A stretch of 49,446 nucleotides of DNA from Gemmatimonadales bacterium (GTDB taxonomy: Bacteria > Gemmatimonadota > Gemmatimonadetes > Gemmatimonadales > GWC2-71-9). Location of the stretch: the NCBI GenBank assembly GCA_036506575.1, contig DASXRM010000043.1, positions 1-49,446 on the forward strand, given 5' to 3'. Each line of letters opens with the position of its first letter. Within the stretch, counting starts at the first letter, position 1. Below the pieces are notes generated by a model, which was not told the origin of the DNA, did no database searches, and was given only the letters and a program-made list of their open reading frames with translations. A program made the translations under genes and the position numbers. This document shows, one piece after another, positions 1 to 44,164 of the stretch.

Positions 1-186
1 TGAGAGGTGAGAGGTGAGAGGTAAGAGGTGAGAGGGGAGAGGGGGGCGAGAATTAACGTCAGAACCAGCTTGGACCCACGAATAGAATGGGTCCGGAGCA
101 AGCCACTCTTCCAGCCAGAGGTCTCACGTCTCACTTCTCACCTCTCACTTCTCACCTCTCACTTCTCACCTCTCACCTCTCACCTC
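1..186. repeat. Microsatellite-armed inverted repeat, copy 1 (left arm cut by window edge): TGAGAGG-type heptamers 1-46, 74-nt spacer, CTCTCAC-type heptamers 121-186
   Basis: Read directly: 6 purine-rich heptamers at 1-46 and 9 complementary heptamers at 121-186. The spacer has its own hairpin GGACCCA(72-78)/TGGGTCC(88-94). The right arm abuts the porin stop codon (185-187). Confidence 0.85.
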
Positions 187-1333
187 AAAACTGATACCCC
201 ACCCCCAGACTCAGCAGCTCGCCTTCGCCCAGGCCCGCCTGATTGCGTTGGAGCTGGTAGTCGCCTTTGAAGACCACGTTATAAATCGGCTTGTAGGACA
301 ACCCGAAGGTGGTAATGCGCCGCGCCAACGACTCGTCCTTCACCACAGCCGGCGGCACCTCGGCCTGCGTATCGAAGTGTTCGTAGCGGAGAAAGGCGTT
401 GAGCCGCTGCACCGAGGCCGGCGCCAGCACGGACAATAGGTTGTAGGCGGCTTCGACGTATCCACCGGCAATGCGGCTGCCCACCTGTCCGCCATAGGCG
501 GCGTTGATGGCCTCCGCATCGGAAATGCTGATATTGGCAACCACCCCCCGAAACATCAATGCGCCGGTATCGTACCTGGCGTCGGCCGCCACCAGCGCGA
601 CCGCGTTGTCGAAGCTGCCGGTGCCCAATGCCGGATCCTGGTTGGCGCTGCCACCGTACCAGAACGAGCCGCCCAGCCTGAGGCCAGGACGAACCCACTC
701 CACCCGACCGGTCAGCGACGGATTGGCGAAGCTGGCCTCCTTTCCCTCCTGCCGCCCGCCTCGAATCCCGGAGACCGCATCGAATCCATCCGCCCGAAGG
801 CCGTTGACCAGGTACACCCGGTAGCTCAACCCGGCCGACCCCGGGAACGCGCCGACGGCACCGATCCCGAGCTCGCGCCAGGTGGTGGGAAGAACGTCAC
901 GATCGAAGCTGGGCCGAGCTACTCCGTTGAATGTGGGCGGCTCGTGTAGCTCATTGACGATCCCAACCGGCGGGAGCACCAGACCTGCCCGTAAGGTGAT
1001 GGCGGGCGCGATGAGATAGTCGAGGTACAGCTGCTCGAGCGCCACCTCGCCTCCTTCCTCGCCCCCCTCGATCTTGGCATCCTCCAGCTCCACCTCAGAC
1101 CGGAAGGCCAGACGCTCACTGAAACTGTGCGCCAGATAGACCACGAACCGCCGTACGTTGATCTCGCCTGGGGTATTCGGCCCGGTGGCGTTGGTATAGT
1201 GCACCTCTCCATACCCACCAACCGTGGTAGTCTCGGTCTCCTGAGCGAAGAGAGCAGCCGGACTGAAGGACAGAGGGACCGCACCGACGGCGAGAGCGGC
1301 CAGCTTGAGGTACGCGCACCGCGGGAAAGGCAT
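185..1333 (-). CDS. Outer-membrane beta-barrel porin (phosphate-selective porin O/P-like)
   Basis: ATG start. Signal peptide LKLAALAVGAVPLSFSPAALFAQ, alternating beta-strand-like pattern, and a C-terminal ...GVGYQF aromatic terminus typical of OM barrels. Confidence 0.7.
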   Translation of the reverse strand: MPFPRCAYLKLAALAVGAVPLSFSPAALFAQETETTTVGGYGEVHYTNATGPNTPGEINVRRFVVYLAHSFSERLAFRSEVELEDAKIEGGEEGGEVALEQLYLDYLIAPAITLRAGLVLPPVGIVNELHEPPTFNGVARPSFDRDVLPTTWRELGIGAVGAFPGSAGLSYRVYLVNGLRADGFDAVSGIRGGRQEGKEASFANPSLTGRVEWVRPGLRLGGSFWYGGSANQDPALGTGSFDNAVALVAADARYDTGALMFRGVVANISISDAEAINAAYGGQVGSRIAGGYVEAAYNLLSVLAPASVQRLNAFLRYEHFDTQAEVPPAVVKDESLARRITTFGLSYKPIYNVVFKGDYQLQRNQAGLGEGELLSLGVGYQF

Positions 1334-1365
1334 CCGGGATCCTGATGAGGGGGCTGAAGACTAAT

Positions 1366-1380
1366 TGAGAATGGTTTTCA
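1366..1380. promoter_or_regulatory. Possible Fur-family 7-1-7 operator (TGAGAAT-G-GTTTTCA) in the AT-rich divergent promoter region
   Basis: 11 of 14 matches to the TGATAAT-N-ATTATCA core. It lies 33-47 nt upstream of the porin ATG, in the only AT-rich stretch of this intergenic region. Confidence 0.25.
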
Positions 1381-1494
1381 TCTATAAGCCCTACTACTTT
1401 ATTCCCGATTAACACTGGTGTCAACACTCGCTCCCGCGCATCATTGGACAGTATCCGCACTTCCATGACCTCACCCGGGCACTGAAGAGGCCCC

Positions 1495-2337: not shown

Positions 2338-2338
2338 G

Positions 2339-4657
2339 GTGTCTCGCCGGCCCGGTAACCCGCCGCTGCCCGCAGCCGCCCTCGCGGCCGGGGCACTACT
2401 CGCCTCCATCCTCACTGCCGTCCTCGTTGCCGGTCCCCCGCCGGCGCGGCCGATGGCGGTCATGGCGGTGGCGAGCACTATCATCCTTGCCCTCTCGATC
2501 TGGCGTAGAGGGTGGGAGGTTCCGCTCCACCTGGTAGCCGCGACCCTCCTCGGCATCGTTGCGTGGTGGGAGGAGGATCGGGTCTGGTGGATCTCCCTCT
2601 TTGCCAGCCTCAGCATTTTGGGAACCTTCTGGGTTGCTCTGGTCCGATCCCGCCGTCGGGCTCGAGAAGCCGAAGCCAAGGCCGACCAGCTCGCGGTTCA
2701 GGTCGACCGCCGCATCAGTGAGCTCTTTTCCCTCCAGGAGCTGAGCTACGTCCTTTCGGAATCGATCCAGCTAGACCGCGTGGTGGACCAGGTGGCCAGG
2801 TATGCCGCGCGCTTTCTCCAGGCGGATGGCGCGGTGGTAGTGCTGGTTGAGATGGAGGGACGGGCACTACGCGTCGTGGCGGCTTCAGGAACGCTGGAGT
2901 CGCTGGTAGGACAGGTGAGCGAAGAATCGGAGAGCGCGCTGGTGCGCTTCGCGATCGGGCGGGACCGAATCGAGGTCGCCCAGGGAACCGAGACTCCAAC
3001 GGTCGACCTCATCGGTGGCTTGCTGGTCCGCTCGGCGGCCGTGGCCCCGCTCCGAGCCCAGGGGATCACGATGGGCGCGCTGGCGGTAGCCGACCGGAGG
3101 GGCGGTCCGTTCACGACGGAAGATCTCTGGCTTTTGTCGACCGTGGCCACGAATGCATCCGTGGTGCTGGCCAACAGTCGCCTCTACGAGATGGTGCGCC
3201 GCAGCGAAGAAGAGTGGGAAACGGCGTTCAACGCTCTCACCGAAGGGATCGCGGTGGTAGGACCCACGGGCGCGATCCTCCGGGCCAACCGGGCGCTGGC
3301 GGCGCTGGCTGAACTGCCCGAATCCGAGCTGGTCAGCCGCGACTTCTGCGAGCTGCTTCCCGGAGCGTCCGAAGTCGTTGCCGGCCTGATCCAGGCGGCG
3401 TATCGCAGGGAGAGGACTGCCCCCTTGGTGGTGCGACTGGAGCAGAATCACCGGGTGCTCCGGTTGACCGCGGCGCCCCTGGCCGGCACGGAATCGGGCT
3501 CGGTGGTTATCCTGATCGAAGATGTCACCGAGCAGCGAATGCTCGAGGCTCAGATCATCCAGAACGACAAAATGGCTTCGATCGGGCAGCTGGTGTCCGG
3601 CGTGGCGCATGAGCTGAACAATCCTCTCACCTCGATTGCGGGGCTGGCCGAGCTCCTGCTGGAGCGGCGCCCGCATCCGGAGCTTCCGCGGGAACACCTC
3701 CGGGTAATTCACGATCAGGCCGAGCGCGCCGGGCGAATAGTGCGCAACCTGCTGACCTTCGCCCGAAAGGGTGTGGCCGAGAAGACGGCGGTCGATCTGA
3801 ATGACGTAGTCACCCGGACCTCGCTGCTGATCATGCACGAGCTGCAGCTCCACGGGATCGAGCTGGATTCGGCGCTGAGCGCGGATCCGGTTGTGGTGCT
3901 GGGCGACCGCTACGAGCTGCAGCAGGTCCTGCTCAATCTGGTGACCAACGCGGTACAAGCCGTGACCGGCGTGGAGGCCGGAAGACCGCGGCGCATCACC
4001 CTGTCCACCAGCCGCTCCGAGGGAGAAGCGGTACTCCGAGTTTGCGACAACGGACCGGGGGTGCCGAAGCACTTCGCTCCCTATCTTTTCACACCGTTCT
4101 TCACCACCAAGGCTCCCGGAGAGGGCACCGGCCTAGGTCTGTCGCTCAGCTACGGGCTGGTGAAGGCTCACGGCGGTGCTCTTGTCTACGAGCCGCCCCC
4201 CGAAGGCGGCGCTGAATTCCGGGTTACGCTGCCTCTCTATGAGTCCGAGATCCCCGCCCCAGTGCAGGAGCCGGTGGCCAAGGAGAACGGTCGCTCGGCT
4301 GCCCGTCGGATTCTGGTTGTGGACGAAGATCCCGCGGTACATCGGCTGGTGAGCGCCCTGTTCACTCCCGAGGGCCATGCGGTGGAGTCGGTGCGCTCGG
4401 GGGAACAGGCGTTGAGACTGGCGCGAGAGGGCGATTACGACATGATCATCGCAGACGTGCGGATGGCGGCCGGCGCGGCGGAGCCGTTCGCCCACGCGCT
4501 GCTCCATGCCTGTCCCCAGGCCCGAGGCCGGCTGGTAGTCGCTTGCTCCGGCGAAGAGGATCTCCCTGCCCCGTTATCGGAGCAGGCGCTTCGCCGGGTG
4601 AGGAAGCCGTTCAATCCCCGCGACCTCCGGAGGGTCGCCAAGGAGATTTTTCAGTAG
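2339..4657 (+). CDS. Hybrid sensor histidine kinase (TM segments - GAF - PAS - HisKA - HATPase_c - REC)
   Basis: GTG start and four N-terminal hydrophobic segments. H-box SGVAHELNNPLTSI; N/G boxes NLVTNAVQA, DNGPGVP, GTGLGLSLS. C-terminal receiver ILVVDEDP...DMIIADVRM. Confidence 0.9.
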   Translation: MSRRPGNPPLPAAALAAGALLASILTAVLVAGPPPARPMAVMAVASTIILALSIWRRGWEVPLHLVAATLLGIVAWWEEDRVWWISLFASLSILGTFWVALVRSRRRAREAEAKADQLAVQVDRRISELFSLQELSYVLSESIQLDRVVDQVARYAARFLQADGAVVVLVEMEGRALRVVAASGTLESLVGQVSEESESALVRFAIGRDRIEVAQGTETPTVDLIGGLLVRSAAVAPLRAQGITMGALAVADRRGGPFTTEDLWLLSTVATNASVVLANSRLYEMVRRSEEEWETAFNALTEGIAVVGPTGAILRANRALAALAELPESELVSRDFCELLPGASEVVAGLIQAAYRRERTAPLVVRLEQNHRVLRLTAAPLAGTESGSVVILIEDVTEQRMLEAQIIQNDKMASIGQLVSGVAHELNNPLTSIAGLAELLLERRPHPELPREHLRVIHDQAERAGRIVRNLLTFARKGVAEKTAVDLNDVVTRTSLLIMHELQLHGIELDSALSADPVVVLGDRYELQQVLLNLVTNAVQAVTGVEAGRPRRITLSTSRSEGEAVLRVCDNGPGVPKHFAPYLFTPFFTTKAPGEGTGLGLSLSYGLVKAHGGALVYEPPPEGGAEFRVTLPLYESEIPAPVQEPVAKENGRSAARRILVVDEDPAVHRLVSALFTPEGHAVESVRSGEQALRLAREGDYDMIIADVRMAAGAAEPFAHALLHACPQARGRLVVACSGEEDLPAPLSEQALRRVRKPFNPRDLRRVAKEIFQ

Positions 4658-6078: not shown

Positions 6079-6827
6079 GGTCGAACCGGATAGCCCCGCT
6101 CGCGAAGGTAAGCCCGCGCCCGCGGCAAAGAGGACTCCCGAAAGTGGAAGATGGTTGCGGCAAGAACCCCGTGCGCCCCTGCCTCCAAAGCATCCGCCAG
6201 GTGCTCCAGTTGGCCAGCGCCGCCGGACGCGATCACCGGAATGCTCACGCCGGCCGACACCTGGCGGATCAGCGGGAGATCGTATCCTTGGCCCGTGCCG
6301 TCCCGGTCCATCGACGTGAGCAGGATCTCGCCGGCCCCGAGCGTCTCCAATCGCCGGGTCCAATCGACCGCTTCGAGCGGCGTCTCCTCCCGGCCGCCGT
6401 TGATCATCACCACGAAGCGCCCGTCGATGCACCTGACGTCCACCGCCACCACCACACACTGGGTACCAAAGCTTTCGGCCAACCGGGAGACCAACGTGGG
6501 ATCACGCACCGCGGCCGTGTTGATGGCGGTTTTGTCTGCGCCCGCTCTCAGCGCCGCACCGGCATCCTGCACCGAGCGGATGCCCCCGCCCACCGTGAAC
6601 GGAATAAAAATGGCTTCCGCAACCCGGCTGACCATCCCGAGCGTGGTGCGGCGCGCCTCTGGGGTGGCCGAGATATCCAGAAAGATGAGTTCATCGGCGC
6701 CGTCGGCGTCATAACGAGCCGCCTGCGCCACCGGATCGCCCGCGTCCCGGAGGCTCTCGAAGTGGACCCCCTTGACCACCCGCCCACCAGCCACGTCGAG
6801 ACAGGGGATGATTCGCCGGGCTAGCAT
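6075..6827 (-). CDS. hisF: Imidazole glycerol phosphate synthase, cyclase subunit
   Basis: [23 protein letters not shown]... and ...[10 protein letters not shown] are classic HisF motifs. Start is the ATG at 6827, chosen over the Arg-rich upstream extension. Confidence 0.93.
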
Positions 6828-7288
6828 ACCCGGAGCACGTCGTCCACCGCGCCTGCGTCCCCCGTCCCCAGCAGCGCCACGATATCGTCCACCGCGCGGC
6901 GCTCGCGGGGCCAGGCAAAGCGGAGTCGAGCCCCCTCGGGAGCGAGCCATTCAAAGCGATCGTGCTCCGGCCCGAGCCGTACGGCGGCATCGGGAGCGAC
7001 GAAAGCGGCGAAGACCGGGACCAGAGCGACTTCGTCTGCCCGGTGCTGATAGAACAACTCGACCCGGCTCAAGTTGTAGAGCCTGAGCGGGGTGAGCCCG
7101 GTCTCCTCCTCCAGCTCCCGAGCCGCCGCGCCGGCCGGCTGCTCGGCCGGTTCGATGTGCCCGTGCACGCTTTCCCAGGAGCCCGGACAGCGCCCGCCAG
7201 GAGCGCGCCGAAGCGCCAGGCATTCCAGCGAGGACCCGGTCCTGCGCAGCACGTACACGTCCACCAGCGAGGTCCGCACCGAGGTCAT
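6821..7288 (-). CDS. NUDIX hydrolase
   Basis: Perfect NUDIX box [23 protein letters not shown] (GX5EX7REUXEEXGU). The ATG at 7288 overlaps the hisH stop (ATGA), and the stop overlaps the hisF start by 7 nt. Confidence 0.8.
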
Positions 7289-7905
7289 GGGTGCCACTCG
7301 GCGAAAGCGGCGAGCAGTGCAATTCCCGCGCGCTGAGACTTTTCCGGGTGAAACTGGGCCCCGATGATCGACCCTTCGCCCACGAGAGTGGGAAAGACGC
7401 CGCCGTAGTCGCCGGTCCCGAGTACATCCCCGGTGGGAAGGGAGGTCGGGTAATAGCTGTGAACGTGATAAAAGAATTGAGACGATTCTTCGAACGCCGC
7501 ACTCAGGAGCGCGTGCCGCCGACCGGACTCGGTCAGGTCGACCTTGGCCCATCCGACATGCGGAACCGGAAGTCCGCTGGAAAACCGTCGCACCCGGCCC
7601 GGGAGCAACGCCATACCGCGTGCCTGGGGGGCCTCCTCGCTCAGCTCGAAGAAGAGTTGCAGGCCAAGGCAGATGCCCATCACCGGACGTCCCGCCCTCG
7701 CCACTTCCCGAATCGCCTCGCCCAGACCGGTGGAGGCGAGCGTCCGCGATGCCTGGCCAAAGTTACCGACGCCGGGAACGAGTACCCGATCGGCCCGTCG
7801 AACTTCCTCGGGGTCGCTGATCAGGTCGGCCGGATGGCCGCTTACCCGGAGTGCGCGAGCCACGCTCGCCAGGTTGTTTACCCCGTAGTCTACCACGGCA
7901 ATCAC
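7285..7905 (-). CDS. hisH: Imidazole glycerol phosphate synthase, glutamine amidotransferase subunit
   Basis: MIAVVDYGVNNLASVARAL..., PGVGNFG, catalytic GICLGLQL, FHPEKS. The GTG start overlaps the hisB stop (GTGA). Confidence 0.93.
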   Translation of the reverse strand: MIAVVDYGVNNLASVARALRVSGHPADLISDPEEVRRADRVLVPGVGNFGQASRTLASTGLGEAIREVARAGRPVMGICLGLQLFFELSEEAPQARGMALLPGRVRRFSSGLPVPHVGWAKVDLTESGRRHALLSAAFEESSQFFYHVHSYYPTSLPTGDVLGTGDYGGVFPTLVGEGSIIGAQFHPEKSQRAGIALLAAFAEWHP

Positions 7906-8492
7906 AGCACGCCCTTGGTCGAGGGCACTCCACCCACCCGTGGATCCCGGGTGGTGGCGGCGTCGAAGGCCCGCGCAAAGGCCTTGAACGCGGCCTCGAC
8001 GATGTGATGCGGGTTATCTCCCCGGACCAGATCGAGGTGAACGGTGAGCCCCGCATTGAGCACCAGCGCCCGGAAGAACTCCGGGGTCAAAAACACATCG
8101 TACTCTCCGAGCATCTGCCACTTGGGAATCTCGATGTGGTATGAGAGATAGGGACGCCCGGAGACGTCTACCACGCACCGGACCAGGGCTTCATCTAGTG
8201 GGATCACGACGTCGGCATACCGCCGAATGCCGGCCCTGTCGCCCAGTGCCTCGCCGATCGCCTGGCCCAGGACGATGCCGGTGTCCTCGACCGTGTGATG
8301 GCCATCCACGTGGAGATCGCCGCGGGCCTCCACCGTCAGATCGAGCAGGCCGTGCCGGGCAAACGCGACCAGCATGTGGTCGAAAAAGCCGATCCCGGTC
8401 CTGACCTGTGCCTCGCCCCGGCCGTCGAGATCGACCCGGACGTGAAGATCGGTCTCATTCGTGGTTCGCCTGACCTCAGCTACGCGGGACAT
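7902..8492 (-). CDS. hisB: Imidazoleglycerol-phosphate dehydratase
   Basis: MSRVAEVRRTTNETDLHVRVDLDG..., DGHHTVEDTGIVLG, NPHHIVEAAFKAFARA. ATG at 8492 preceded by GGGGAG 6 nt upstream. The ORF-track extension reads through the repeat element. Confidence 0.92.
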   Translation of the reverse strand: MSRVAEVRRTTNETDLHVRVDLDGRGEAQVRTGIGFFDHMLVAFARHGLLDLTVEARGDLHVDGHHTVEDTGIVLGQAIGEALGDRAGIRRYADVVIPLDEALVRCVVDVSGRPYLSYHIEIPKWQMLGEYDVFLTPEFFRALVLNAGLTVHLDLVRGDNPHHIVEAAFKAFARAFDAATTRDPRVGGVPSTKGVL

Positions 8493-8514
8493 GCTGAGCT
8501 CCCCAAAAACATTG

Positions 8515-8706
8515 CCGCAGATAACCACGGATAAAGAACACGGATTATTCCTGGCCCACTCGGCGCTCCTCTCGCAGCAGCAGAGCTCGGCAATTTCTTG
8601 TTTAACAGCTGCTTTCAAACAAAACAACATCCCCGGACTCCACCTTGTGACGGGAGTCCCAAGCCCGCAAGGAGCGATCCGTGCTTTTATCCGTTTTTAT
8701 CTGCGG
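8515..8706. repeat. Microsatellite-armed inverted repeat, copy 2 (hisC-hisB intercistronic): arms 8515-8545 and 8677-8706, 131-nt spacer
   Basis: CCGCAGATAACCACGGATAAAGAACACGGAT versus the reverse complement of ATCCGTGCTTTTATCCGTTTTTATCTGCGG (about 26 of 30 positions pair). Each arm contains ACGGATAAA twice. The spacer has hairpin GGACTCC(8635-8641)/GGAGTCC(8653-8659). The hisC stop lies inside the right arm. Confidence 0.85.
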
Positions 8707-9899
8707 CCACCTTCTTCGGGTGGGTTGGAGAGGATCTCCTCCAGCGCCTGGATTACCGCGTCCATGTCATCGGCCGTGCCGATCGAAATCCGCAGACAAT
8801 CGGCCAGCTCAAGGGAGCTCGATAGGTCTCGTACCAGGATACCATAGTCCTGGTGCAGGCGATGGAAGAGTTGGGTTGCCGAGATGGCCTGACAGCGGAT
8901 CAGCACGAAGTTGGCCGCAGACGGATACACCGAGACACCTGAGACCCGGCGCAGGCGAGCCACGAATCGCTCGCGCGTGCCGATAACCTCGTGGGTGCGG
9001 GCGGTCAGCATCGAGGCGTGCCGCAGGGCGACCCGAGCGGCCGCCAGGGTTATCAGGTTCACGTTGTAGGGCAGCTTTCCCTTGGCGATCTCCCGAGCCA
9101 CAGCCGGATGCGCCAGCGCCACGCCAAACCTGAGTCCGGCCAGCCCCAGCGCCTTGGAGAAAGTCCGGAGAACGACCACGCGCGACGAGTGCCGGAGCAG
9201 TGGGATGGCGCTGGGGCCGCCGAAGTCCTGATACGCTTCATCGCATACCACCAAGGCATCGGTTGCATCGAGAACCCGTTCGACAGCACCCTCGGGGAGC
9301 GCCGAACCGGTCGGATTGTTGGGAGAGTTGAGCACCACGACCCTGGCGTGCTCCCGCCGGGAAGTCTCGATCAGCCGATCGACATCAAAGACGTAAGCTT
9401 CTCCCAGCGGCACCGGTAGGTAGCGCCCGCCCAGCACGCCGGTCAGCAGACGGTACAGCGAGAAGGTCGGTGATGGCGCGACAACCACATCGCCGGCGCC
9501 GAGCGTCACGGCAAGAGTCGCCTGGATCAGCTCGTTCGAGCCGTTCCCCACCAGCACGCCGTCCGGCAGCCATCCATACTGCGCCGCCAGCGCCGACTGA
9601 AGATCGCGCGGCACGAACTCCGGGTAGCGCTGCCAAGGCCGTCCGGCGACCTGATCCCACACTTCCCGCTTGAGCTCGGCGGGGAAATCGAACGGCGACT
9701 CGTTCTGGTTGAGCTTCCGTCGAGCCGCCGGAGCGGCCAACGAGTAGCCCGCCTGGCCGCGCACGGACGGCTTGATCAGCTCGAGGCCGTCCGATGCCGG
9801 CGGCGAGCCCACCGGGCCGGGAGCGTCGAGCGAAGGATTGGTGGGCTGGGTGGGTACCCGCTGAGCGGGGGATGGCGGCGGGGTACGCGGCCGGGTCAA
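8697..9899 (-). CDS. hisC: Histidinol-phosphate aminotransferase
   Basis: KLNQNESPF, GNGSNELI, NSPNNPTG and TFSKALGLAGLRFG (PLP lysine motif). The start as given is a TTG overlapping the stop of the upstream ATPase. The Pro-rich first ~40 aa may not be translated, so the start is uncertain. Confidence 0.88.
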   Translation of the reverse strand: MTRPRTPPPSPAQRVPTQPTNPSLDAPGPVGSPPASDGLELIKPSVRGQAGYSLAAPAARRKLNQNESPFDFPAELKREVWDQVAGRPWQRYPEFVPRDLQSALAAQYGWLPDGVLVGNGSNELIQATLAVTLGAGDVVVAPSPTFSLYRLLTGVLGGRYLPVPLGEAYVFDVDRLIETSRREHARVVVLNSPNNPTGSALPEGAVERVLDATDALVVCDEAYQDFGGPSAIPLLRHSSRVVVLRTFSKALGLAGLRFGVALAHPAVAREIAKGKLPYNVNLITLAAARVALRHASMLTARTHEVIGTRERFVARLRRVSGVSVYPSAANFVLIRCQAISATQLFHRLHQDYGILVRDLSSSLELADCLRISIGTADDMDAVIQALEEILSNPPEEGGRR

Positions 9900-14286: not shown

Positions 14287-14320
14287 CTCTCACCTCTCAC
14301 TCGATGCACCTCTCACCTCT
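14181..14320. repeat. Microsatellite-armed inverted repeat, copy 3: GGTGAGA-type arm 14181-14215, 54-nt spacer, CTCTCAC-type arm 14270-14320
   Basis: Read directly; about 25 of 28 arm positions are complementary. It lies across the 5' ends of two divergent ORFs. Confidence 0.85.
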
Positions 14321-14932
14321 GCCGCTCGAGCAATATTTCATGACCGGATAGCCCCGGTAACCTGGCTCGTGCTCATCGGGTTTGCTACCCTCGGGGGCTG
14401 CGGCACCAGGCCAGCCAGCGCGCCCGCGACACCCCCCGCAGCCGGGCCGACCCCCGCCCGCATCCTGTCGCTCGCCCGCGTCATCGTGCTCGAAACCTCA
14501 GGCCCGCCGCCCTCGGATACGTCGGTGAGCTTCACGACCGGCACTCCGCGAACTATCGTGCTCCGCCACGGCCCGCCGGAAAACGTCGTCTTTGCCAAGC
14601 TGAGCCTTCCCGCTGCCGCATTCGCCGACAGCGGGCGTACGGTCACGGTGGACGTGCGCCCGCGGCCCGGCGTATACGGCCTCGACCTCAGTACCAGTAT
14701 GCCGCTTCGGGGTGGCGCGACCATCACGTTCGACTATGCCCGTTATTTCTCTGCTCCCGCCCGAGCCCGCCAGGTCTATCACACCGATGTGGCGTTCGAG
14801 GGCGCGCTCGCGGTAGGACGAATATTGCCGGACAACCAGATCGAGCTCTTGCCTTCGACCCACCCCGCGCCCGATAACCTGGCCGCCGGGCTCCCCGCGC
14901 CCGGGAGCTACCTCGTGGCGGCGCCACAGTGA
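14267..14932 (+). CDS. Hypothetical lipoprotein (lipobox LGGC)
   Basis: ORF with ...VTWLVLIGFATLGGCGTRPAS. The stop overlaps the trpE GTG (GTGA). The start is ambiguous (ATG 14267 or GTG 14207), and both lie inside repeat copy 3. Confidence 0.4.
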   Translation: MHLSPLTSHLSLDAPLTSAARAIFHDRIAPVTWLVLIGFATLGGCGTRPASAPATPPAAGPTPARILSLARVIVLETSGPPPSDTSVSFTTGTPRTIVLRHGPPENVVFAKLSLPAAAFADSGRTVTVDVRPRPGVYGLDLSTSMPLRGGATITFDYARYFSAPARARQVYHTDVAFEGALAVGRILPDNQIELLPSTHPAPDNLAAGLPAPGSYLVAAPQ

Positions 14933-18138: not shown

Positions 18139-18154
18139 CGGGAGCCCTTCCCGC

Positions 18155-33801: not shown

Positions 33802-33945
33802 GAAGGCGGGGCAGCGGCTGGCGAGCTGCCCCCAATCCACGAGGAAAGCGGGTGGGGCGGAGCAGACGACACGGGTAGGGGTTCGAAGGCAGGCTCCCAG
33901 GGGCAGGGCGGAGGGGTTGTCGCGGAGCCTGCCGGAGAGCCCGTG

Positions 33946-33971
33946 CCCGTGTCGGCTGCGCGGTGGGGCGG
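33946..33971. repeat. 26-nt direct repeat, copy 1 (CCCGTGTCGGCTGCGCGGTGGGGCGG)
   Basis: 25 of 26 identity with 34117-34142. Followed by hairpin GGGGCGG(33965-33971)/CCGCCCC(33980-33986). Confidence 0.8.
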
Positions 33972-34116
33972 GACTTCGGCCGCCCCTAACCCCTCGCTTT
34001 GGGCGAGCCACCACCCTTTCGGCCGCTGCAGTGCGCTGCGTCGGTGACGATCCAGCACAGAGGCGAGCGCGCACTGACGCGGCCTCCAGGCTAGCGGCTC
34101 GCCCGGCGCGCCCCAC

Positions 34117-34142
34117 CCCGTGGCGGCTGCGCGGTGGGGCGG
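34117..34142. repeat. 26-nt direct repeat, copy 2 (CCCGTGGCGGCTGCGCGGTGGGGCGG)
   Basis: 25 of 26 identity with 33946-33971. Preceded by CCCCACC, which pairs with the internal GGTGGGG. Confidence 0.8.
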
Positions 34143-34151
34143 AAAATGGAG

Positions 34152-36526: not shown

Positions 36527-37098
36527 CGACGGCCAACCTCGACATCGATCTGCAGCTGATCGAGGATCCGCTGTGCCACGAAATCTATCAGTTCGCTCAC
36601 CTGCGTGGGACGATGATAAAAACCGGGTGCTGCGGGGACGACCACCGCGCCCGCCTCAGTGACAGTCACCAGATTCCGGAGATGCACCAGGGATAACGGG
36701 GTCTCCCGCGGCACTAGAATCAGCTTACGACGTTCTTTGAGAGTCACATCCGCTGCCCGCTCGACCAGTGAGCGGCTGGTTCCCCCCGCGATGGCCGCCA
36801 CGGTGCCCATGGAGCAGGGACAGATGACCATTCCCGCGGTGCGCTGCGACCCCGAGGCCGGTAAGGCACCTCGATCCTCGTCGGCGAACGTGACCACCGA
36901 AGACCAATCCCCACCCGTTGCCTGGCGCAGTCCCTCGAGCGACCCGATCCCGCACTCCTCTCGAAGCAGCCGCATGCCGTGCTCGGAGACGATCAGCCAT
37001 ACCGGGATGTTGCTCAGCGCAAGCAGCTCGAGCAGCCGCACACCATAAGGCGCCCCGGACGCCCCCGTCAGGGCGAGAACCACCGGAAAGCGGTTCAC
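36505..37098 (-). CDS. ubiX: Flavin prenyltransferase UbiX
   Basis: ...FPVVLALTGASGAPYGVRLLE..., MVICPCSMGTVAAIAGG. The GTG at 37098 gives a canonical N-terminus. The ORF-track start (GTG 37206) lies in the spacer of repeat copy 5 and reads through its left arm. Confidence 0.85.
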   Translation of the reverse strand: MNRFPVVLALTGASGAPYGVRLLELLALSNIPVWLIVSEHGMRLLREECGIGSLEGLRQATGGDWSSVVTFADEDRGALPASGSQRTAGMVICPCSMGTVAAIAGGTSRSLVERAADVTLKERRKLILVPRETPLSLVHLRNLVTVTEAGAVVVPAAPGFYHRPTQVSELIDFVAQRILDQLQIDVEVGRRWGGNAT

Positions 37099-37147
37099 CG
37101 GCCGCGCCGGTTGGGGGTGGGAGAGCGTAGTGGATGCTTGGGCGGCA

Positions 37148-37290
37148 GGGAAGACGGAGAGGGCGGAGAGGACGGAGAGGGCCAACGACGACCTGGTCTC
37201 TTCCACTCGGGCTTTCCCGTTTGGTCCGTCCTAACGGTTTTATCGCTCTTCTTCATCTCCGTCTTCTCCGTCCTCTCCGTCCTCTCCGCC
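37148..37290. repeat. Microsatellite-armed inverted repeat, copy 5 (ubiA-ubiX intercistronic): GGAGAGGAC-type 9-mers 37148-37181, 74-nt spacer, GTCCTCTCC-type 9-mers 37256-37290
   Basis: Read directly. The right arm ends 1 nt before the ubiA stop codon (37292-37294). Confidence 0.85.
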
Positions 37291-37291
37291 T

Positions 37292-38269
37292 TTATAAAAG
37301 CCTATCCACCAGCGCAAACCCAAACACCACCAGCGACATCACGCCATTCATGGTGAAGAACGCCGCATCGAGTCTGGAGAGATCGCCGGGGCGCACCAGA
37401 TGGTGCTCGTAGGCCAGGATACCGGTAGCGATGGTGAGGCCAAGATAGTACCACGGGCCGAAGCCGGCTCCGAAACCGAAGAGCGCGAGCGCCGGGATGG
37501 TGATTCCGTGAAGCACCTTGGCGAGAACGAGGGCGCGAGATTCACCCAGACGCACTACTGCGCTGCGGAGTCCTTCGGCGCTGTCGAATCCCGCATCCGG
37601 CAGGGCATAGAAGATATCGAATCCAGCGACCCAGGTTGCCACACCCAGCGTAATGGTGATTAGAACCCAGGCCGGAGTGCTCCAGCGGCCGGTCACGGCG
37701 AGATAACCGCCTACCGGGGCGATCGCGAGGCTGAGGCCGAGCCAGAGATGGGGCCACCAGGTAAACCGCTTGGACAGGCTGTAGAGCAGGATCCACACGA
37801 GCGCAATCGGGCTCAACAGCAGACAGAGGGGATTGAGAAGCGCTGCCGACAGCGTGAAGAGCCCGCCGGCCAGAAGCACCGACGCCCAGGCCTGAGTGAG
37901 TGAAAGCCGGCCCTGAGGCAGCTCGCGGTTGAGTGTCCGCGGGTTGCGCGCATCGAACCGCCGGTCGGCGATGCGGTTGAAGCCCATCGCGGCCCAGCGC
38001 GCCGAGGAGAACGCGAGCACTACCAGCGCAACCGTGCTGGGAGTGACGGGCCTGGCCAAGGAGGCCGCCAGCACGCCGAGGAGCGCAAAGGGCAGCGCGA
38101 ACAAGGTGTGCGGCAGTTTGACGAAGTTGGCATACCGGACCAGGAGGGATTGGCCCTCGTAGGTTTGGCCCTCTCGGACAGCAAGCGGTAAGCGGTAAGC
38201 GGTAAGCGGGTCATCCCGCTCGGATCCCGCTGGTCTACCCGATCCAGGGTATTCCGGCTCACCGCTCAC
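37292..38269 (-). CDS. ubiA: UbiA-family aromatic prenyltransferase (4-hydroxybenzoate/1,4-dihydroxy-6-naphthoate polyprenyltransferase-like)
   Basis: ...LVRYANFVKLPHTLFALPFALLG..., NRIADRRFDARNPRT (Asp-rich motif), and about 8 TM segments. The GTG start at 38269 lies inside the right arm of repeat copy 6, so the start is uncertain. Confidence 0.85.
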   Translation of the reverse strand: MSGEPEYPGSGRPAGSERDDPLTAYRLPLAVREGQTYEGQSLLVRYANFVKLPHTLFALPFALLGVLAASLARPVTPSTVALVVLAFSSARWAAMGFNRIADRRFDARNPRTLNRELPQGRLSLTQAWASVLLAGGLFTLSAALLNPLCLLLSPIALVWILLYSLSKRFTWWPHLWLGLSLAIAPVGGYLAVTGRWSTPAWVLITITLGVATWVAGFDIFYALPDAGFDSAEGLRSAVVRLGESRALVLAKVLHGITIPALALFGFGAGFGPWYYLGLTIATGILAYEHHLVRPGDLSRLDAAFFTMNGVMSLVVFGFALVDRLL

Positions 38270-38285
38270 CGCTCACCTCTCACGC
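38181..38285. repeat. Microsatellite-armed inverted repeat, copy 6 (ubiD-ubiA junction): GGTAAGC heptamers 38181-38209, 46-nt spacer, GCTCACC heptamers 38256-38285
   Basis: Read directly. It contains the ubiD stop and the annotated ubiA start. The spacer begins GTCATCCCGCTCGGATCC. Confidence 0.85.
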
Positions 38286-39765
38286 TTTTCAGGTTTATCC
38301 CGAGTTTCCCCCACATCTCATCCACCCGCCGCTTGGTCTCCGCATCCATCGTCATCAGCTCCGGCCACTCCCGGTCGAAGCCTTCCTCCTTCCACTTCCT
38401 GGTCGCGTCGATCCCCATCTTGCTGCCGTAAGTGAAGGCCCGGCTGGAGTGATCGAGCACGTCGATGGGCCCCATGGTAAAGCGGACGTCCCGCTCCGGA
38501 TCGATGTTGTTCAACGCGATCCACCAGGCCTCATCCGGGTCCCGCACGTTGACCTCCTTGTCCACGATCACCAATACCTTGGCGAGTGACATGAGACCCT
38601 GGCCCCAGAGCGCGTTCATCACCTTATAGGCCTGACCCGGGTACTGCTTGTCGATCGAGACGAAGACCAGATTGTGGAAGATGCCGGGGGCCGGCATGTG
38701 ATAGTCCACGATCTCGGGGATCGTGAGCTTGAGCAGCGGCAGGAAGATCCGCTCGGTGGCGTGGCCCAGGTAGAAGTCCTCCATCGGAGGGCGACCCACC
38801 AGCGTTGCGGGATAGATGGGATCTCGCCGGGAGGTGATCGCGGTGACGTGTACCTTGGGGTAGTAGTCCGCCAGCGAGTAGAAGCCGGTGTGGTCGCCGA
38901 ATGGTCCCTCGAGTACCAGTGGCTCGGCGGGGTCGATGAAGCCTTCGAGCACCAGCTCCGCCTGAGCCGGCACATCCAGCTCGCAGGTAACCGCGCGCGC
39001 AAGCTCGACCGGTTCGCGGCGGAGGAACCCCGCAAAGAGAAACTCATCTATCGTGGGGGGGAGCGGTGCGGATCCAGAGTAGATGCTGGCCGGATCGCCC
39101 CCCAAGGCGATGATCACGGGCATCCGCTGGCCTCGAGCCGCCATGTCGCGCCAGTGAGCCGCTCCCACCTTGTGCCGTTGCCAGTGCATGGCGAGCGCAT
39201 TTCGGCCGATGACCTGGATGCGATACATGCCGACGTTGCGAATCCCGCGAGCAGGATCGGTAGTGATCACCATCGGGAGAGTGATGTACCGGCCTCCATC
39301 CCCGGGCCAGGTGGTAAGAAACGGGATGAAATCGAGATTCACTTCCCCGTCCCGCAGAACCAGTTCCTGGCAGGGCGGGCGGCCGCTCTTGACCCGGGGC
39401 GGAAACTTCCCGATTTCCGCGAGCTTCGGCAGCATGGCGAGCTTGCCGAGAAGCCCTTCGGGGACCTTGAGGTTCAGCATCTCGGAGATGCGTCCGCCGA
39501 TCTGGTCGAGATCTTCGACCCCCAGGGCCAATCCCATCCGGCGAAGCGAGCCAAACAGGTTTATGGCAACCGGCTGAGAGCTCCGCCGGCCATCCTCCAG
39601 CAGCACATGCTCGAATAGCAGGGCCGGCCCTCCGCCGGAACTCTTCATGGCCCGGTCGGCGATTTCGGCGATTTCGAGCCGCGCGCGCACTGGGTGAGTC
39701 ACCCGAGTGAGCTCCCCGATGCCGTCGATCGCCTTGATGAAGTCGCGGAGGTTGTCTAGGGCCAT
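38266..39765 (-). CDS. ubiD: UbiD-family (prenylated-FMN-dependent) decarboxylase
   Basis: MALDNLRDFIKAIDGIGELTRV..., ...GRYITLPMVITTDP..., EGPFGDHTGFY. The C-terminal KSVRGER is encoded by the right arm of repeat copy 6. Confidence 0.9.
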   Translation of the reverse strand: MALDNLRDFIKAIDGIGELTRVTHPVRARLEIAEIADRAMKSSGGGPALLFEHVLLEDGRRSSQPVAINLFGSLRRMGLALGVEDLDQIGGRISEMLNLKVPEGLLGKLAMLPKLAEIGKFPPRVKSGRPPCQELVLRDGEVNLDFIPFLTTWPGDGGRYITLPMVITTDPARGIRNVGMYRIQVIGRNALAMHWQRHKVGAAHWRDMAARGQRMPVIIALGGDPASIYSGSAPLPPTIDEFLFAGFLRREPVELARAVTCELDVPAQAELVLEGFIDPAEPLVLEGPFGDHTGFYSLADYYPKVHVTAITSRRDPIYPATLVGRPPMEDFYLGHATERIFLPLLKLTIPEIVDYHMPAPGIFHNLVFVSIDKQYPGQAYKVMNALWGQGLMSLAKVLVIVDKEVNVRDPDEAWWIALNNIDPERDVRFTMGPIDVLDHSSRAFTYGSKMGIDATRKWKEEGFDREWPELMTMDAETKRRVDEMWGKLGINLKSVRGER

Positions 39766-39782
39766 GTCCCCTACAGAAAAGG

Positions 39783-39910
39783 CGTGAACGGTGAACGGTG
39801 AGCGGTGAACGTGAACCGGTGTAGCAGGGTCATCGAACAGCGGATCCCTCGCCGTGCTCGGGATGAGGAGTCTTGGTGCCCGTTCACTGTTTACCGTTCA
39901 CCGTTTACGC
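39783..39910. repeat. Microsatellite-armed inverted repeat, copy 7 (ubiE-ubiD intercistronic): GGTGAAC heptamers 39783-39818, 60-nt spacer, GTTCACC-type heptamers 39879-39910
   Basis: Read directly. The ubiE stop (39891-39893) lies inside the right arm. The spacer carries GGATCCCTCGCCGTGCTCGGGATGAG. Confidence 0.85.
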
Positions 39911-40634
39911 TTTTCGTCCCCACATACAACGCGCACACCCCTCCCATCAGCAGGTCGTAGCGGACCTCCTCGAACCCCTGCTCTGCCATCCTTCGTGCGA
40001 GCTCGGGAGGTGCGGGAAAGACACGGGTGGACTCTGGTAGCCAGCTATAGGCGCTCCTATGTTTCGAGATCCAGCGGCCAATCAAAGGCATTACCCGACG
40101 GAAATAGAATTGGTATGCCGCGCGCAGGAGCCGTCGGCCCGGGAGGGCCGTCTCGAGGATAACGAGTTTCCTGCCCGGTCGGAGGACCCGCGCCGCTTCA
40201 GCGAGCCCGGCATCGAGATCCATCAGATTGCGCAAACCCCAGCCGACCATCGCGCCGTCGAACGTCTGGTCGGGAAACGGTAGCTCGAGCGCGTCGGCGC
40301 TTACCGGAACCAGCCTCGGCGCCTTGTCGCGCCCCAGCTCCAGCATGCGCCGCACGAAATCAGCTCCGATCACCCGCCCGCGGAATCCCGGCCGGTTCGC
40401 CAGCGTGGCGCCGAAATCCAGGGTGCCGGCGCACAGGTCGAGATAGATTCCTTCAGGCTCCCGCTCCCACCCCAACCGTGCGACCGCGTAGCGTCTCCAG
40501 CGCTGGTCGAACCGGAAGCTGATGATGCGATTGAGCCGGTCGTAAGTGGGAGCAATGGCGGTGAAAATGGCCCGGACGTAGGCCCGCTTTTCCGGACCGC
40601 CTGAAACGGGTAACTGACGATCCGAGGCTAACAT
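39891..40634 (-). CDS. ubiE: Demethylmenaquinone / ubiquinone C-methyltransferase (UbiE/MenG)
   Basis: ...VRAIFTAIAPTYDRLNRIISF..., SAM motif YLDLCAGTLDFG, LRPGRKLVILE. The C-terminal KSVNGER is encoded by the right arm of repeat copy 7. Confidence 0.88.
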   Translation of the reverse strand: MLASDRQLPVSGGPEKRAYVRAIFTAIAPTYDRLNRIISFRFDQRWRRYAVARLGWEREPEGIYLDLCAGTLDFGATLANRPGFRGRVIGADFVRRMLELGRDKAPRLVPVSADALELPFPDQTFDGAMVGWGLRNLMDLDAGLAEAARVLRPGRKLVILETALPGRRLLRAAYQFYFRRVMPLIGRWISKHRSAYSWLPESTRVFPAPPELARRMAEQGFEEVRYDLLMGGVCALYVGTKSVNGER

Positions 40635-41290: not shown

Positions 41291-41327
41291 AACCTCCCGT
41301 TCACCCTCAACGTAGGAGGGTCCACTT

Positions 41328-41930: not shown

Positions 41931-43203
41931 TCGGCTGCTCGGGCCCCTCGCCGTTCTCGCCGCGGTGGTGCCGGGCCCGCTGCCTGCGGAGACCCCGTTC
42001 GATCGCCTCACTTCCAGTGCGGTAAACCTGGTGGACCATTTCCGGATGCTCATCCGGGAGGTCTCACCTGACTGGCAGGGGCAGCGCGAGTCGGCCCTAG
42101 CGCGTCCTCAGCCTCAAACGATTCCAGTCGGCGGAACTTCAATCGACCTGAGCGATCTCAGCCGGCCCACCGTGGTCGAGACGCGGCTCCGCTCGGCACT
42201 CGAGCCGGTGAACGGAGAGGTCCGGCTCACCGTTTCCGGCGGAACGGCGCGCCGGGGAGACTTTAGCCTCGGCTCATCCGAGAGCCATAACGGCCACCTG
42301 CTGGTGGTGGACGGAAACGCCGACATCTACGGGCATCTCAGCGGGAATCTGGTGACAGTGAAGGGTGACGTGGTGCTGCATCCGGGCGGAGTGGTCTCTG
42401 GTGACATCCTCACCCTAGGAGGCGAGGTAAGGGATGAAGGCGGCGAGATCGGCGGCGAGGTGCGCACCCTCAAGGCGACCACATTGCTCTCCCCCGTCAC
42501 CAGAGCCGAACCGGAAGTCCTCACCCCGCTTCAGAGTGTGCTCCGGCGCATCGCCGGGGTTCTCGGGGTATTCTTGACTCTCTTGGTGCTGGGCTTTGGC
42601 CTGGTGATGTTTGGCCGGCAAAATCTCGAGATCGTCTCCGACACCGTCTCCCACTCCTTCGGCCGAGCGTTTCTGACCGGACTCCTCGGGCAGATTCTGC
42701 TTCTTCCCACCTTTGGCATGCTCGTCGTTGGTCTGATCCTTAGTGTCGCCGGGATTCTGCTACTCCCGTTTGCCATCGCGGTGTTCGCCATGCTGGCCGT
42801 CATCGGCATCGTCGGCGGGTACCTCGCCGTGGCTCACGCGATGGGTGAGACCTACACCCGGAGGCGTATGGCTCTCGGCGCTCTGATCGGGTCCCCCAAC
42901 AGCTATCGGTATGTCCTGGTCGGCCTGCTGGCCCTGGCGAGTCTGTGGGCCGCGTGGGCGCTGTTCGGATGGGTGCCGGTGGCGGGAAGTATCGTCTGGG
43001 GAGCGGCGTTTTTCGTGACCTGGCTCCTGGGAACCGCTGGCTTTGGGGCGGCGCTGTTGAGCCGCGCTGGCATCAAGGAGAATTTTGCCGGACGATTGTT
43101 CCCCCCGGAAGCACTCACCGACGAATACCTGTGGGCCACTCCCCAGTTCGGCGTGCCTGCGGGCCGGCGGCCTGGCACCCGCACACCTCCGCGCGGAGCT
43201 TGA
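41917..43203 (+). CDS. Membrane protein with bactofilin-like (polymer-forming) beta-helical repeat and multiple C-terminal TM segments
   Basis: Signal peptide. Repeat NADIYGHLSGNLVTVKGDVVLHPGGVVSGDILTLGGEVRDEGGEIGGEVRTL. Then 5-6 hydrophobic helices. Confidence 0.5.
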   Translation: MRGYNRLLGPLAVLAAVVPGPLPAETPFDRLTSSAVNLVDHFRMLIREVSPDWQGQRESALARPQPQTIPVGGTSIDLSDLSRPTVVETRLRSALEPVNGEVRLTVSGGTARRGDFSLGSSESHNGHLLVVDGNADIYGHLSGNLVTVKGDVVLHPGGVVSGDILTLGGEVRDEGGEIGGEVRTLKATTLLSPVTRAEPEVLTPLQSVLRRIAGVLGVFLTLLVLGFGLVMFGRQNLEIVSDTVSHSFGRAFLTGLLGQILLLPTFGMLVVGLILSVAGILLLPFAIAVFAMLAVIGIVGGYLAVAHAMGETYTRRRMALGALIGSPNSYRYVLVGLLALASLWAAWALFGWVPVAGSIVWGAAFFVTWLLGTAGFGAALLSRAGIKENFAGRLFPPEALTDEYLWATPQFGVPAGRRPGTRTPPRGA

Positions 43204-43205
43204 GC

Positions 43206-44048
43206 GTGAAACGCGGGGCGGTCACTCTGGTCCTCCTACTGTGGACCGGGGCAGCACAGGCCCAGACGATGCGCCCCTTCGCCACCTTCCGCCAGATGCA
43301 TGGAGAAACCCGCCTGGCCGCGCGGCTCGAGTATGCGGCCGGTAACCTTCGAGTGGCGCCCGGCCGGCCGGCCGAGCTGTATCGCATGGAGCTTTCCTAC
43401 GACCAGGACCGCTACCTGCCGGTGAGCGATTACCATGCGCAGAGCGGCGCAGTGGTTCTGGGACTGAGGCCCGCGGGTGAGGGTGGAGTTCGCGTGGTCT
43501 CACGGAACCAGTTGAGCCAGATCGCAACGGTCGCCCTGTCGCCCCGAGTGGACCTCGCGCTCGCTCTCACCTTGGGCGCCACGGATGCCGACGTGGAGTT
43601 GGGCGGCCTCAGAATCACCAATCTGCACGTGAAAACCGGCGCCAGCCGGGCCCTGATCCGCTTCTCACAGCCGAATGCGGCCCGCTGTGATCTCGCCAGC
43701 ATCAGTGCGGGGGCGGCTGAGGTGTCGGTGCTCGGTCTGGGGAACAGCCGGTGCGACGAGATCGAATTCGAGGGTGGGATCGGCAAGGTGTTGCTCGATT
43801 TTGCCGGGACTTGGAGCTCGAGCTCCCGGGTAGAGGTGAAAATGGCCATGGGCGAGCTCACCCTTCGCCTCCCGCGCGGAGTCGGTGTCCGGATCAGGAT
43901 GGACAAGTTCCTATCGAGCTTCGAGCCGGTCGGGCTGGTGCGGCAAGGCGATGCCTTCGAGTCGCCCAACTATAGCCGTACCCAGCGCCACCTGGACCTC
44001 GACCTCACAACGGCTGTCGGCGGGGTGAATGTGGAGTGGGTGGAGTAG
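43206..44048 (+). CDS. Secreted beta-strand-repeat protein (LiaF/LiaG-type, DUF2154/DUF4097-like)
   Basis: GTG at 43206, 2 nt after the upstream stop. Signal peptide VTLVLLLWTGAAQA. Repetitive strands ...VELGGLRITNLHVKTGASRALIRF...EVSVLGLGNSRCDEIEFEGGIGKVLLDF...VEVKMAMGELTLRLPRGVGVRIRM. Confidence 0.45.
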   Translation: MKRGAVTLVLLLWTGAAQAQTMRPFATFRQMHGETRLAARLEYAAGNLRVAPGRPAELYRMELSYDQDRYLPVSDYHAQSGAVVLGLRPAGEGGVRVVSRNQLSQIATVALSPRVDLALALTLGATDADVELGGLRITNLHVKTGASRALIRFSQPNAARCDLASISAGAAEVSVLGLGNSRCDEIEFEGGIGKVLLDFAGTWSSSSRVEVKMAMGELTLRLPRGVGVRIRMDKFLSSFEPVGLVRQGDAFESPNYSRTQRHLDLDLTTAVGGVNVEWVE

Positions 44049-44164
44049 CAGTGAGAGGTGAGAGGTAAGAGGTGAGAGGTTTTTCAGCCAGAGCGAAGTG
44101 GATCCCTCGCTTCGCTCAGGATGACACCTCTTCCCTCTCACTTCTCACTGCTCACCCCTTACCC
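44049..44164. repeat. Microsatellite-armed inverted repeat, copy 8: GGTGAGA heptamers 44049-44079, 45-nt spacer, pyrimidine arm 44125-44164
   Basis: Read directly. It starts 1 nt after the upstream TAG and ends 12 nt before the next ATG. The spacer has hairpin AGCGAAG(44092-44098)/CTTCGCT(44110-44116) and the motif GGATCCCTCGCTTCGCTCAGGATGAC. Confidence 0.85.

Follow-up and report, generated by a model that had tools for sequence, protein, structure and literature searches.

Hairpins Built from Paired Tandem Arrays of Short Units at Gene Boundaries in Gemmatimonadales

Results and Discussion

The window analyzed here is a 49,446-nt stretch of DNA from a Gemmatimonadales soil bacterium, and it contains a dispersed family of inverted repeats at gene boundaries, numbered copies 1 to 8 by position. 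Genes were called with a hexamer model that agrees with the deposited gene calls for identical contigs, arrays were detected with Tandem Repeats Finder, and pairing between arms was assessed with an inverted-repeat finder. A previous sequence-only reading had assigned one tandem-arm architecture to all eight loci. Both tools support this assignment for seven of them, in which a purine-rich array of a 7- or 9-nt unit is followed 16–79 nt on by a reverse-complement array, with arms that are 83–93% complementary; it fails for copy 2, which has little tandem character. The 49 kb contain no fewer than six distinct 7–9-nt units, most of which have no GGG run. Coding sequence occupies 94% of the window, and the elements account for 26% of the non-coding remainder.

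Copy 1 (1–186) consists of a purine arm at 1–46, (TGAGAGG)6, a spacer at 47–120, and a pyrimidine arm at 121–186, (TCTCACC/T)9.3; the tool-called arrays are 1–42 (TGAGAGG, 6 units) and 122–186 (TCTCACC, 9.3 units). The element is truncated by the window start and may be longer than is visible. It adjoins a minus-strand gene (185–1333), whose TGA stop is the arm's first triplet read on that strand. The inverted-repeat finder pairs its arms in at least five registers, as had been proposed for periodic stems of this kind, and a 14-nt higher-order period is confined to one arm. Copy 2 (8501–8720), the weakest member, fills the hisC/hisB gap with arms at 8501–8535 and 8686–8720 that are 80% complementary. 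It is a long imperfect hairpin (230 nt) with two to three loose ACGGATAAA-like units, and Tandem Repeats Finder gives no match there even at a score of 30. Copy 3 (14180–14320) lies at a divergent junction and comprises (GGTGAGA)4.3 at 14180–14215, a spacer, and (CACCTCT)7 at 14270–14320 (called at 14183–14212 and 14270–14320); its first arm falls within the first codons of the called gene at 12205–14232 (minus strand).

Copy 4 (16402–16497) is built from a 9-nt unit, with (GGGAAGGAC)4.7 at 16402–16447 and (CCTTCCCGN)4 at 16462–16497 (called at 16403–16444 and 16461–16496). The trpE TAA stop (16459–16461) is in its loop, the following ATG is at 16510, and TrpE (gene at 14929–16461, plus strand) owes its C-terminal tail, AGRTGRTGKTGTTGTERTS, to the 9-nt array. 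The deposited TrpE gene call begins 16 codons after the start of the longest open reading frame (ORF). Copies 5–7 separate minus-strand genes of one apparent operon. Copy 5 (37144–37292; arms 37144–37182 and 37256–37292; called arrays 37155–37182 and 37256–37288) has the 9-nt unit GGAGAGGAC and occupies the ubiA/ubiX junction, where its array starts 2 nt past the ubiA TAA stop. Copy 6 (38181–38285) spans the ubiD/ubiA junction with (GGTGAGC)4 at 38256–38285 and (GCTTACC)4 at 38181–38209 (called at 38183–38209 and 38257–38283). Copy 7 (39778–39914), at the ubiE/ubiD junction, has a GGTGAAC/GGTAAAC arm at 39875–39914, which includes the ubiE TAA stop, and another arm at 39778–39821 (called at 39784–39821 and 39880–39908); the ubiD ATG is at 39765. 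Copy 8 (44047–44164) comprises (GGTGAGA)4.3, a spacer, and a pyrimidine arm at 44125–44164 (called at 44051–44080 and 44136–44155), its array beginning right after a TAG stop (44046–44048) and the following ATG standing at 44177.

RNA folding energies were compared with those of 200 dinucleotide shuffles per copy, a check that the sequence-only reading had itself suggested. All eight copies fold better than every one of their 200 shuffles, with z-scores between −3.4 and −9.6 (−9.6, −7.4, −5.1, −7.8, −5.5, −8.1, −3.4, and −8.4 for copies 1 through 8). Two stretches that had been named as possible degenerate relatives (19241–19297 and 18106–18192) fold at the shuffle level (z = −0.45 to −1.4) and do not stand as such. 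Contigs from three independent assemblies of other samples carry copies 2, 3, 4, 7, and 8 without a gap at 99.9–100% identity, so the arrays are not an artefact of a single assembly. Beyond these contigs, the metagenome scan found nothing nearer than 90% protein identity. The window itself begins inside an array, and several related contigs, L017 and L027 among them, end inside arrays. Units common to several loci probably break short-read assemblies, and arrays of this kind also mislead gene callers on starts, stops, and apparent fusions in Gemmatimonadota metagenome-assembled genomes.

Recurrence was examined in a sample of 80 loci from species genomes and 80 from metagenomes, for 1.8 Mb of related DNA in all. 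The first set is the window plus the 80 species-genome loci (1.2 Mb), and the second set is the 80 metagenome loci. UbiD of the window (38266–39765, minus strand) reaches 91% identity with proteins of Gemmatimonadales metagenome-assembled genomes. An array was defined by a 6–10-nt unit and its partner by a reverse complement at most 300 nt away, with reversed and complement-only queries as controls. A partner is present for 125 of 393 arrays in the first set, as compared to 6 (reversed) and 24 (complement-only) in the controls, and for 60 of 214 arrays in the second, as compared to 0 and 13. Overall, about 30% of arrays are paired versus 0–6% in the controls. Merging of the pairs in the first set yields 73 elements. 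The purine-rich arm comes first in 103 of 106 arrays in the first set and 49 of 52 in the second (two arrays counted per element), which makes the arm order first noted in the window a general one. Because an inverted repeat shows the purine-first order on both strands, this is a real asymmetry rather than a choice of the strand read.

Several unrelated units coexist in one genome. A unit is shared by 16% of pairs within a genome versus 5.5% between genomes (p = 0.008), and three copies in L071 (5819–5905, 11484–11548, and 12456–12523) have both the unit and similar flanks (GCGACAYC ... GRTGTCGC) in common, while two loci in L019 (8814–8903 and 15251–15347) have one unit. These observations hint at spread or conversion between loci. 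They would also suit mobile elements of the MITE or REPIN type with tandem-array terminal inverted repeats, as would a second dispersed motif that occurs in some spacers (described below). However, same-unit copies have unrelated spacers, neither target-site duplications nor fixed ends were seen, the ubiD/ubiA units are traceable to local coding sequence, and the window holds no transposase; a mobile origin is the most improbable explanation that we considered.

The proximity of the window's copies to start and stop codons is real and extends to the related DNA. From the upstream stop codon to the first arm, the median gap is 1 nt, and 60 of 77 stops are inside the element or at most 10 nt away. 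Between the second arm and the called start, the median is 13 nt, and 37 of 57 starts are inside the element or at most 25 nt away. Tandem junctions account for 57 of the 73 elements, convergent ones for 10, and divergent ones for 2, against a baseline of 935, 135, and 121 junctions, respectively; elements are thus found at 2 of 121 divergent junctions versus 67 of 1070 others (Fisher p = 0.02 for the divergent deficit). Arrays of 7- or 8-nt units avoid gene interiors, whereas those of 6- or 9-nt units are mostly inside genes. Coding sequence accounts for 93% of the DNA, yet just 16 of 146 heptamer arrays are found deep within genes. Unpaired arrays are also ordered on the sense strand: purine-rich ones adjoin a stop 21 versus 4 times, and pyrimidine-rich ones adjoin a start 11 versus 1 times (Fisher p = 1.6e-5).

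A stop triplet is present in 29 of 43 heptamer units, versus 16.5 ± 2.7 in shuffled units. By strand, it is found in 34 of 73 units read on the purine strand and in 4 of 73 read on the pyrimidine strand. As a unit length of 7 is not divisible by 3, three heptamer units close all three frames. At one ubiD/ubiA junction (L024, about 6464–8100), the purine array has an 8-nt unit with no stop triplet, and the ubiD frame therefore stays open through the element into ubiA (551 codons), which is either an apparent UbiD–UbiA fusion or an assembly frameshift.

Copy 6 lies entirely within coding sequence. The ubiD TGA stop in its GGTGAGC array overlaps the only usable in-frame ubiA start (GTGA), and, in the ubiA frame, the spacer and second arm add about 30 residues to the N-terminus. 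The upstream open frame at this junction is 49 codons in the window, L002, and L026, and the peptide GE(P/R)EYP is kept in four species with synonymous differences; judging from the reading frame, copy 6 is translated. In six other loci (L003, L006, L007, L011, L023, and L036), the first arm encodes the UbiD tail, an ATGA stop/start overlap is in the loop, and the second arm encodes LPPYRPTALPP-like UbiA residues. The array-free L004 has a single CCTACCGCC at that ubiA N-terminal position. In the six others this sequence is multiplied, as is its complement in the ubiD tail; the array therefore grew from local sequence.

The sequence-only reading allowed for a terminator or attenuator role, citing short T-runs after several copies. 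The results go against it. A run of at least four T follows only 3 of 77 sense-direction exits, and a terminator scan of the window yields sites at the shuffle level. The T-runs cited for copies 6 and 7 lie on the strand opposite that of the genes, and those at copies 2 and 7 pair with an A-rich stretch of the stem. The absence of U-tracts, together with the position of copy 6 wholly inside coding sequence, indicates that the elements are not classical intrinsic terminators.

A bidirectional terminator or attenuator that needs no U-tract is a separate possibility. In such a device, a weak hybrid between pyrimidine-rich RNA and its template would be stripped off by the long stem, and entry from either side would produce purine-rich and then pyrimidine-rich RNA. 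This arrangement would explain the purine-first order on both strands, given the known ranking of hybrid stabilities. It also fits the position of elements next to gene 3′ ends, their presence at convergent junctions, and their rarity at divergent ones. The window shows no surplus of classical terminators, which leaves room for another device. Nevertheless, besides the scarcity of T-runs at the exits, copies 5–7 stand between genes of one apparent operon, and in copy 6 and its orthologues the downstream start precedes the second arm, such that ubiA would be lost if termination were efficient. The genes at most convergent junctions in the window are 0–16 nt apart, with no element between them. 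We consider termination by these stems improbable.

Orthologous junctions reveal rapid turnover between species. At ubiD/ubiA, many species have no element, and the ubiD stop there overlaps the ubiA ATG. A purine array stands alone in L005, L030, and L038 and a pyrimidine array alone in L035 and L040. Where arrays are paired, the units differ by species (GGTGAGC, GGTGAAC, GGTGAAA/G, AGGGAGC, GGCGGTAA, GGCGGACA, and GGCGGAA). The ubiA/ubiX junction shows the same range of states, with at least 12 units of 7 to 10 nt and arrays that begin 0–8 nt after the stop.

Despite differing units, the arms of each element remain matched to one another. A left arm scores on average 19.8 against its own right arm and 5.7 against those of other elements. 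Of the 27 pairs in a consensus fold of seven ubiD/ubiA elements, 8 have changes on both sides, and in four species at this junction the arms are 83–84% identical as compared to 48% for the intervening spacer. At one junction, the unit length changed from 7 to 8 nt concordantly in both arms. These data support the earlier view that pairing matters over a fixed sequence. Copy numbers are unequal between the two arms, and a low-power test found no mirror order of unit variants between arms; the arms are homogenized separately.

Our tentative explanation, to which we give somewhat less than an even chance, is that the hairpins grew in place by slippage and form an mRNA stem opened only by ribosomes that end the upstream gene, providing translational coupling and 3′ capping. 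A short boundary sequence and its complement a few dozen bases downstream would each be multiplied by replication slippage with a 7–10-nt unit, yielding two arrays able to pair in many registers. These arrays would be tolerated solely at gene ends. The purine-rich array would face the incoming gene, its heptamer units supplying stops in all three frames, and the pyrimidine-rich array, being stop-free, could be translated as extra N-terminal residues of the outgoing gene. Co-transcribed with its neighbors, the element would fold into a 25–45 bp RNA stem with the upstream stop at its foot or inside it and the downstream start inside the stem or just behind it. The start region would then be hidden unless a ribosome finishing the upstream gene had melted the stem, and at convergent junctions the stem would cap both 3′ ends. 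The arms would be kept complementary since pairing matters. Stems of 25–45 bp are expected to be RNase III substrates, a prediction that applies to these elements.

Several results weigh against coupling as set out above. Many species have no element at the ubiD/ubiA or ubiA/ubiX junction, so the element is dispensable there. Arrays without a partner are common, and their order relative to genes is that of paired ones; the orientation rule therefore needs no hairpin. The purine-first order also holds for 8-nt units that have no stop triplets, Shine-Dalgarno-like cores are not enriched in the units, and copy 4 has one fixed, uncorrected mismatch per unit. Coupling cannot account for the 10 elements at convergent junctions. 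A selected mRNA stem should, moreover, tolerate G-U pairs on the sense strand, and the pooled counts trend in the opposite direction (123 sense versus 203 antisense), with sense RNA the more stable form for 24 elements and antisense RNA for 33. Where both arms are non-coding, the counts are 58 sense versus 101 antisense, and the second set shows no strand bias (23 versus 31). Finally, a study of similar arrays in Xanthomonas saw no regulatory effect (PMC4692102).

A function at the DNA level, in which a cruciform or single-stranded DNA hairpin serves as a protein-binding, topological, or replication signal as proposed for REP/BIME, would be in keeping with the lack of a G-U preference on the mRNA strand, with an element that is identical on both strands, and with the recurrence of some units at several loci of one genome. 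There is, however, no common sequence that a protein could recognize, the units differing even within a genome, and placement tracks stop and start codons to a few bases. Such precision points to translation or coding constraints. In addition, the coding-embedded ubiD/ubiA element retains four sense-strand G-U pairs in three species, which would be mismatches in DNA. This reading seems to us very improbable.

The main rival to coupling is that the elements are a non-adaptive by-product of a lineage prone to slippage with 7–9-nt units. Inverted arrays would arise and decay by DNA-level events such as slippage and strand switching at quasi-palindromes, and would persist solely at gene ends, the place of least harm, with any effects on expression being incidental. 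Much of the evidence above would be expected on this account: the G-U trend, orthologous junctions that are empty or hold one array or different units, unpaired arrays that obey the same stop/start rule, separately homogenized arms with the fixed mismatch of copy 4, the concentration of 26% of the non-coding DNA of a 94%-coding window in these elements, and Xanthomonas arrays for which no function was found (PMC4692102). In contrast, it does not predict arms far better conserved than the spacer within the same translated stretch, nor compensatory changes that include the concordant shift from 7 to 8 nt in both arms. Slippage-prone heptamers are kept in the N-terminal coding sequence of ubiA in four species with frame and length preserved, which would be an unrewarded cost, and the mirror order of unit variants that whole-arm copying would leave is absent in the low-power test. 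We view the by-product account as possible but doubtful.

An unlikely but broader reading treats the elements as a purpose-built class of boundary element between genes. Here the stem would be opened by a ribosome or RNA polymerase from either side and, thanks to its periodic arms, re-pair in any register. It would either impose strict coupling on neighboring genes or, by way of the weak hybrid of pyrimidine RNA with purine DNA, terminate transcription with no U-tract, and the arms would be matched by hairpin-guided mutation rather than base-by-base selection. The Xanthomonas arrays would be explained likewise.

If the stems do act in mRNA, a whole order would set the expression ratio of neighboring genes through a structure that evolves by slippage, far faster than by point mutation. 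The elements would then offer a testable model for the birth of regulatory hairpins, for the over-representation of heptamers in bacterial genomes, and for what the Xanthomonas arrays do. The near-universal purine-first order in two distant phyla, even among unpaired arrays, points to a general constraint after stops and before starts.

Relation to Known Systems

Several known identities were considered and rejected. As had been suggested from the sequence, the elements are not CRISPR, REP, BIME, or ERIC repeats: the 7–9-nt units are arranged head to tail without spacers, whereas a CRISPR array has direct repeats of 23–50 nt with unique spacers of similar length between them, and there is no common palindrome. 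A REP/BIME/REPIN assignment would call for a common 20–40-nt palindrome, whereas the arms here differ between loci and the spacers are unrelated; no RAYT gene is present within the window. A MITE family does not fit copies 1, 3, and 8, which have a common unit but not a common spacer or flanks, and the same is true in L019, L034, and L058. Shine-Dalgarno mimicry by the purine units was set aside because the core occurs in 21 of 73 units versus 24.5 expected; roughly one-third of genes here do have a Shine-Dalgarno-like signal. The idea of a telomerase-like or break-repair origin of the polarity was likewise discarded, as unpaired arrays share the gene-relative rule and unrelated units coexist per genome. 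Searches of the window against Rfam gave no matches at the gathering threshold; E-value mode returned just microRNA-precursor hairpins scoring far below it.

The earlier statement that the elements match no known repeat holds for REP, BIME, and ERIC but has to be amended, since closely similar GGGAATC arrays have been described in Xanthomonas (PMC4692102). These paired heptamer arrays are the closest described relatives. They are intergenic in X. campestris and X. axonopodis (Rehm et al. 2015, PMC4692102), and about three-quarters of them are paired in "convergent orientation" with the G-rich strand first, for 70–75 pairs per genome (PMC4692102). They lie on average 28 nt from the upstream ORF, nearer than to the downstream ORF, are rare between divergent genes, and vary in length and sequence between related species at one junction; they are transcribed, and no function was found (PMC4692102). 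The Gemmatimonadales elements have in common with them tandem arrays of about 7 nt mostly outside genes, a purine- or G-rich strand that comes first, proximity to the end of the upstream ORF, and scarcity between divergent genes. Xanthomonas, however, has one genome-wide unit with quadruplex-forming G-tracts, whereas Gemmatimonadales, a member of a different phylum, has locus-specific units of 7–10 nt that mostly lack GGG. Unlike in Xanthomonas, each array is matched to its own partner, the arms overlap or supply stop and start codons and are partly translated, and the heptamers are enriched for stop triplets.

The STRR sequences of heterocyst-forming cyanobacteria and the TAACTGA arrays of Beggiatoaceae are more distant relatives than the Xanthomonas arrays. 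STRR sequences are likewise dispersed tandem heptamers mostly outside genes. In work by Vioque in 1997, STRR units reportedly extend helix P12 of RNase P RNA on both strands, such that arrays can build a helix. STRR arrays nevertheless belong to a few fixed unit families per genome (such as CCCCAGT). In Gemmatimonadales, units are shared more within than between genomes, but several unrelated ones coexist. STRR arrays are also mostly unpaired direct arrays, with few paired repeats reported in Nostoc, and have no described link to stop or start codons. The TAACTGA direct repeats are intergenic heptamer arrays placed relative to start codons (PMC4679880). They differ in having a single fixed unit in direct arrays (169 sets versus one inverted repeat) that stand upstream of starts and not at stops (PMC4679880).

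Other comparisons concern position or geometry. REP/BIME and REPIN sequences are proteobacterial extragenic palindromes that are common after gene 3′ ends and inside operons, and roles in mRNA stability and in the expression ratio of neighboring genes have been proposed for them. A REP is a conserved imperfect palindrome of 20–40 nt in many copies tied to the RAYT transposase; the Gemmatimonadales elements, in contrast, have no common sequence, their arms are not palindromic, and periodicity is their defining property. The long-range pairing between the MS2 coat and replicase genes, like start-site occlusion in operons, sequesters a start until an upstream ribosome unwinds it, a likeness suggested by geometry. 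Such coupling stems are short and non-repetitive, whereas those in Gemmatimonadales are long arrays for which coupling is predicted and would be inapplicable at convergent junctions. Intrinsic (Rho-independent) terminators likewise place a G+C-rich stem-loop just after a gene, but the stems described here have no U-tract, are 3–5 times longer, and in some cases lie inside the downstream ORF.

Other Features of the Window

The window is very compact, with many 4-nt stop/start overlaps. It contains no tRNA or tmRNA, and its sigma-70-like promoters are no more numerous than those in shuffles. A possible half-element, an unpaired pyrimidine-rich array (CTTCGTGTC)3.8 at 19265–19297 on the plus strand, stands upstream of a plus-strand gene. 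About one complementary unit is found at 19243–19254, and the hairpin is not significant (z = −1.3 to −1.4).

The second dispersed motif, GTCAYCCYGAGCGNAGCGARGGATC, is about 26 nt long and, if translated, would give "VILSEAKDL" or "HPERSEGS". In the window, it occurs on the minus strand at 39842–39866 and 44100–44125, with a shorter copy at 38210–38232. The 1.2 Mb of the first set contains 55 matches (including in L018, L021, L022, and L051), nearly all between genes and often in inverted pairs 20–45 nt apart in a REPIN-like arrangement. Eight matches are inside the spacers of array hairpins, including those of copies 7 and 8. The literature searched by sequence gave no match to this motif.

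Between two convergent genes, a 350-nt gene-free stretch (33802–34151) contains two imperfect hairpins of about 100 nt at 33862–33959 and 34001–34104, the second centered on CGGCCGCTGCAGTGCGC...GCGCACTGACGCGGCC. Rfam returned nothing in this stretch. The second hairpin recurs at L004 junctions (4092–4108; ubiA/ubiX gap) and may represent a third dispersed element.

A Lys- and Pro-rich ORF of 53 codons lies in the spacer of copy 5 (37095–37256, minus strand; MKKSDKTVRTDQTGKPEWKRPGRR...). Similar small ORFs (MAKKVKRS..., MSKRPKENLIPQRGRGKP...) are present at the ubiA/ubiX junction in L001, L005, L046–L058, and L069, where they begin just past the first arm or stand alone. The ubiA/ubiX ORF may encode a small protein or an N-terminal extension of UbiX.

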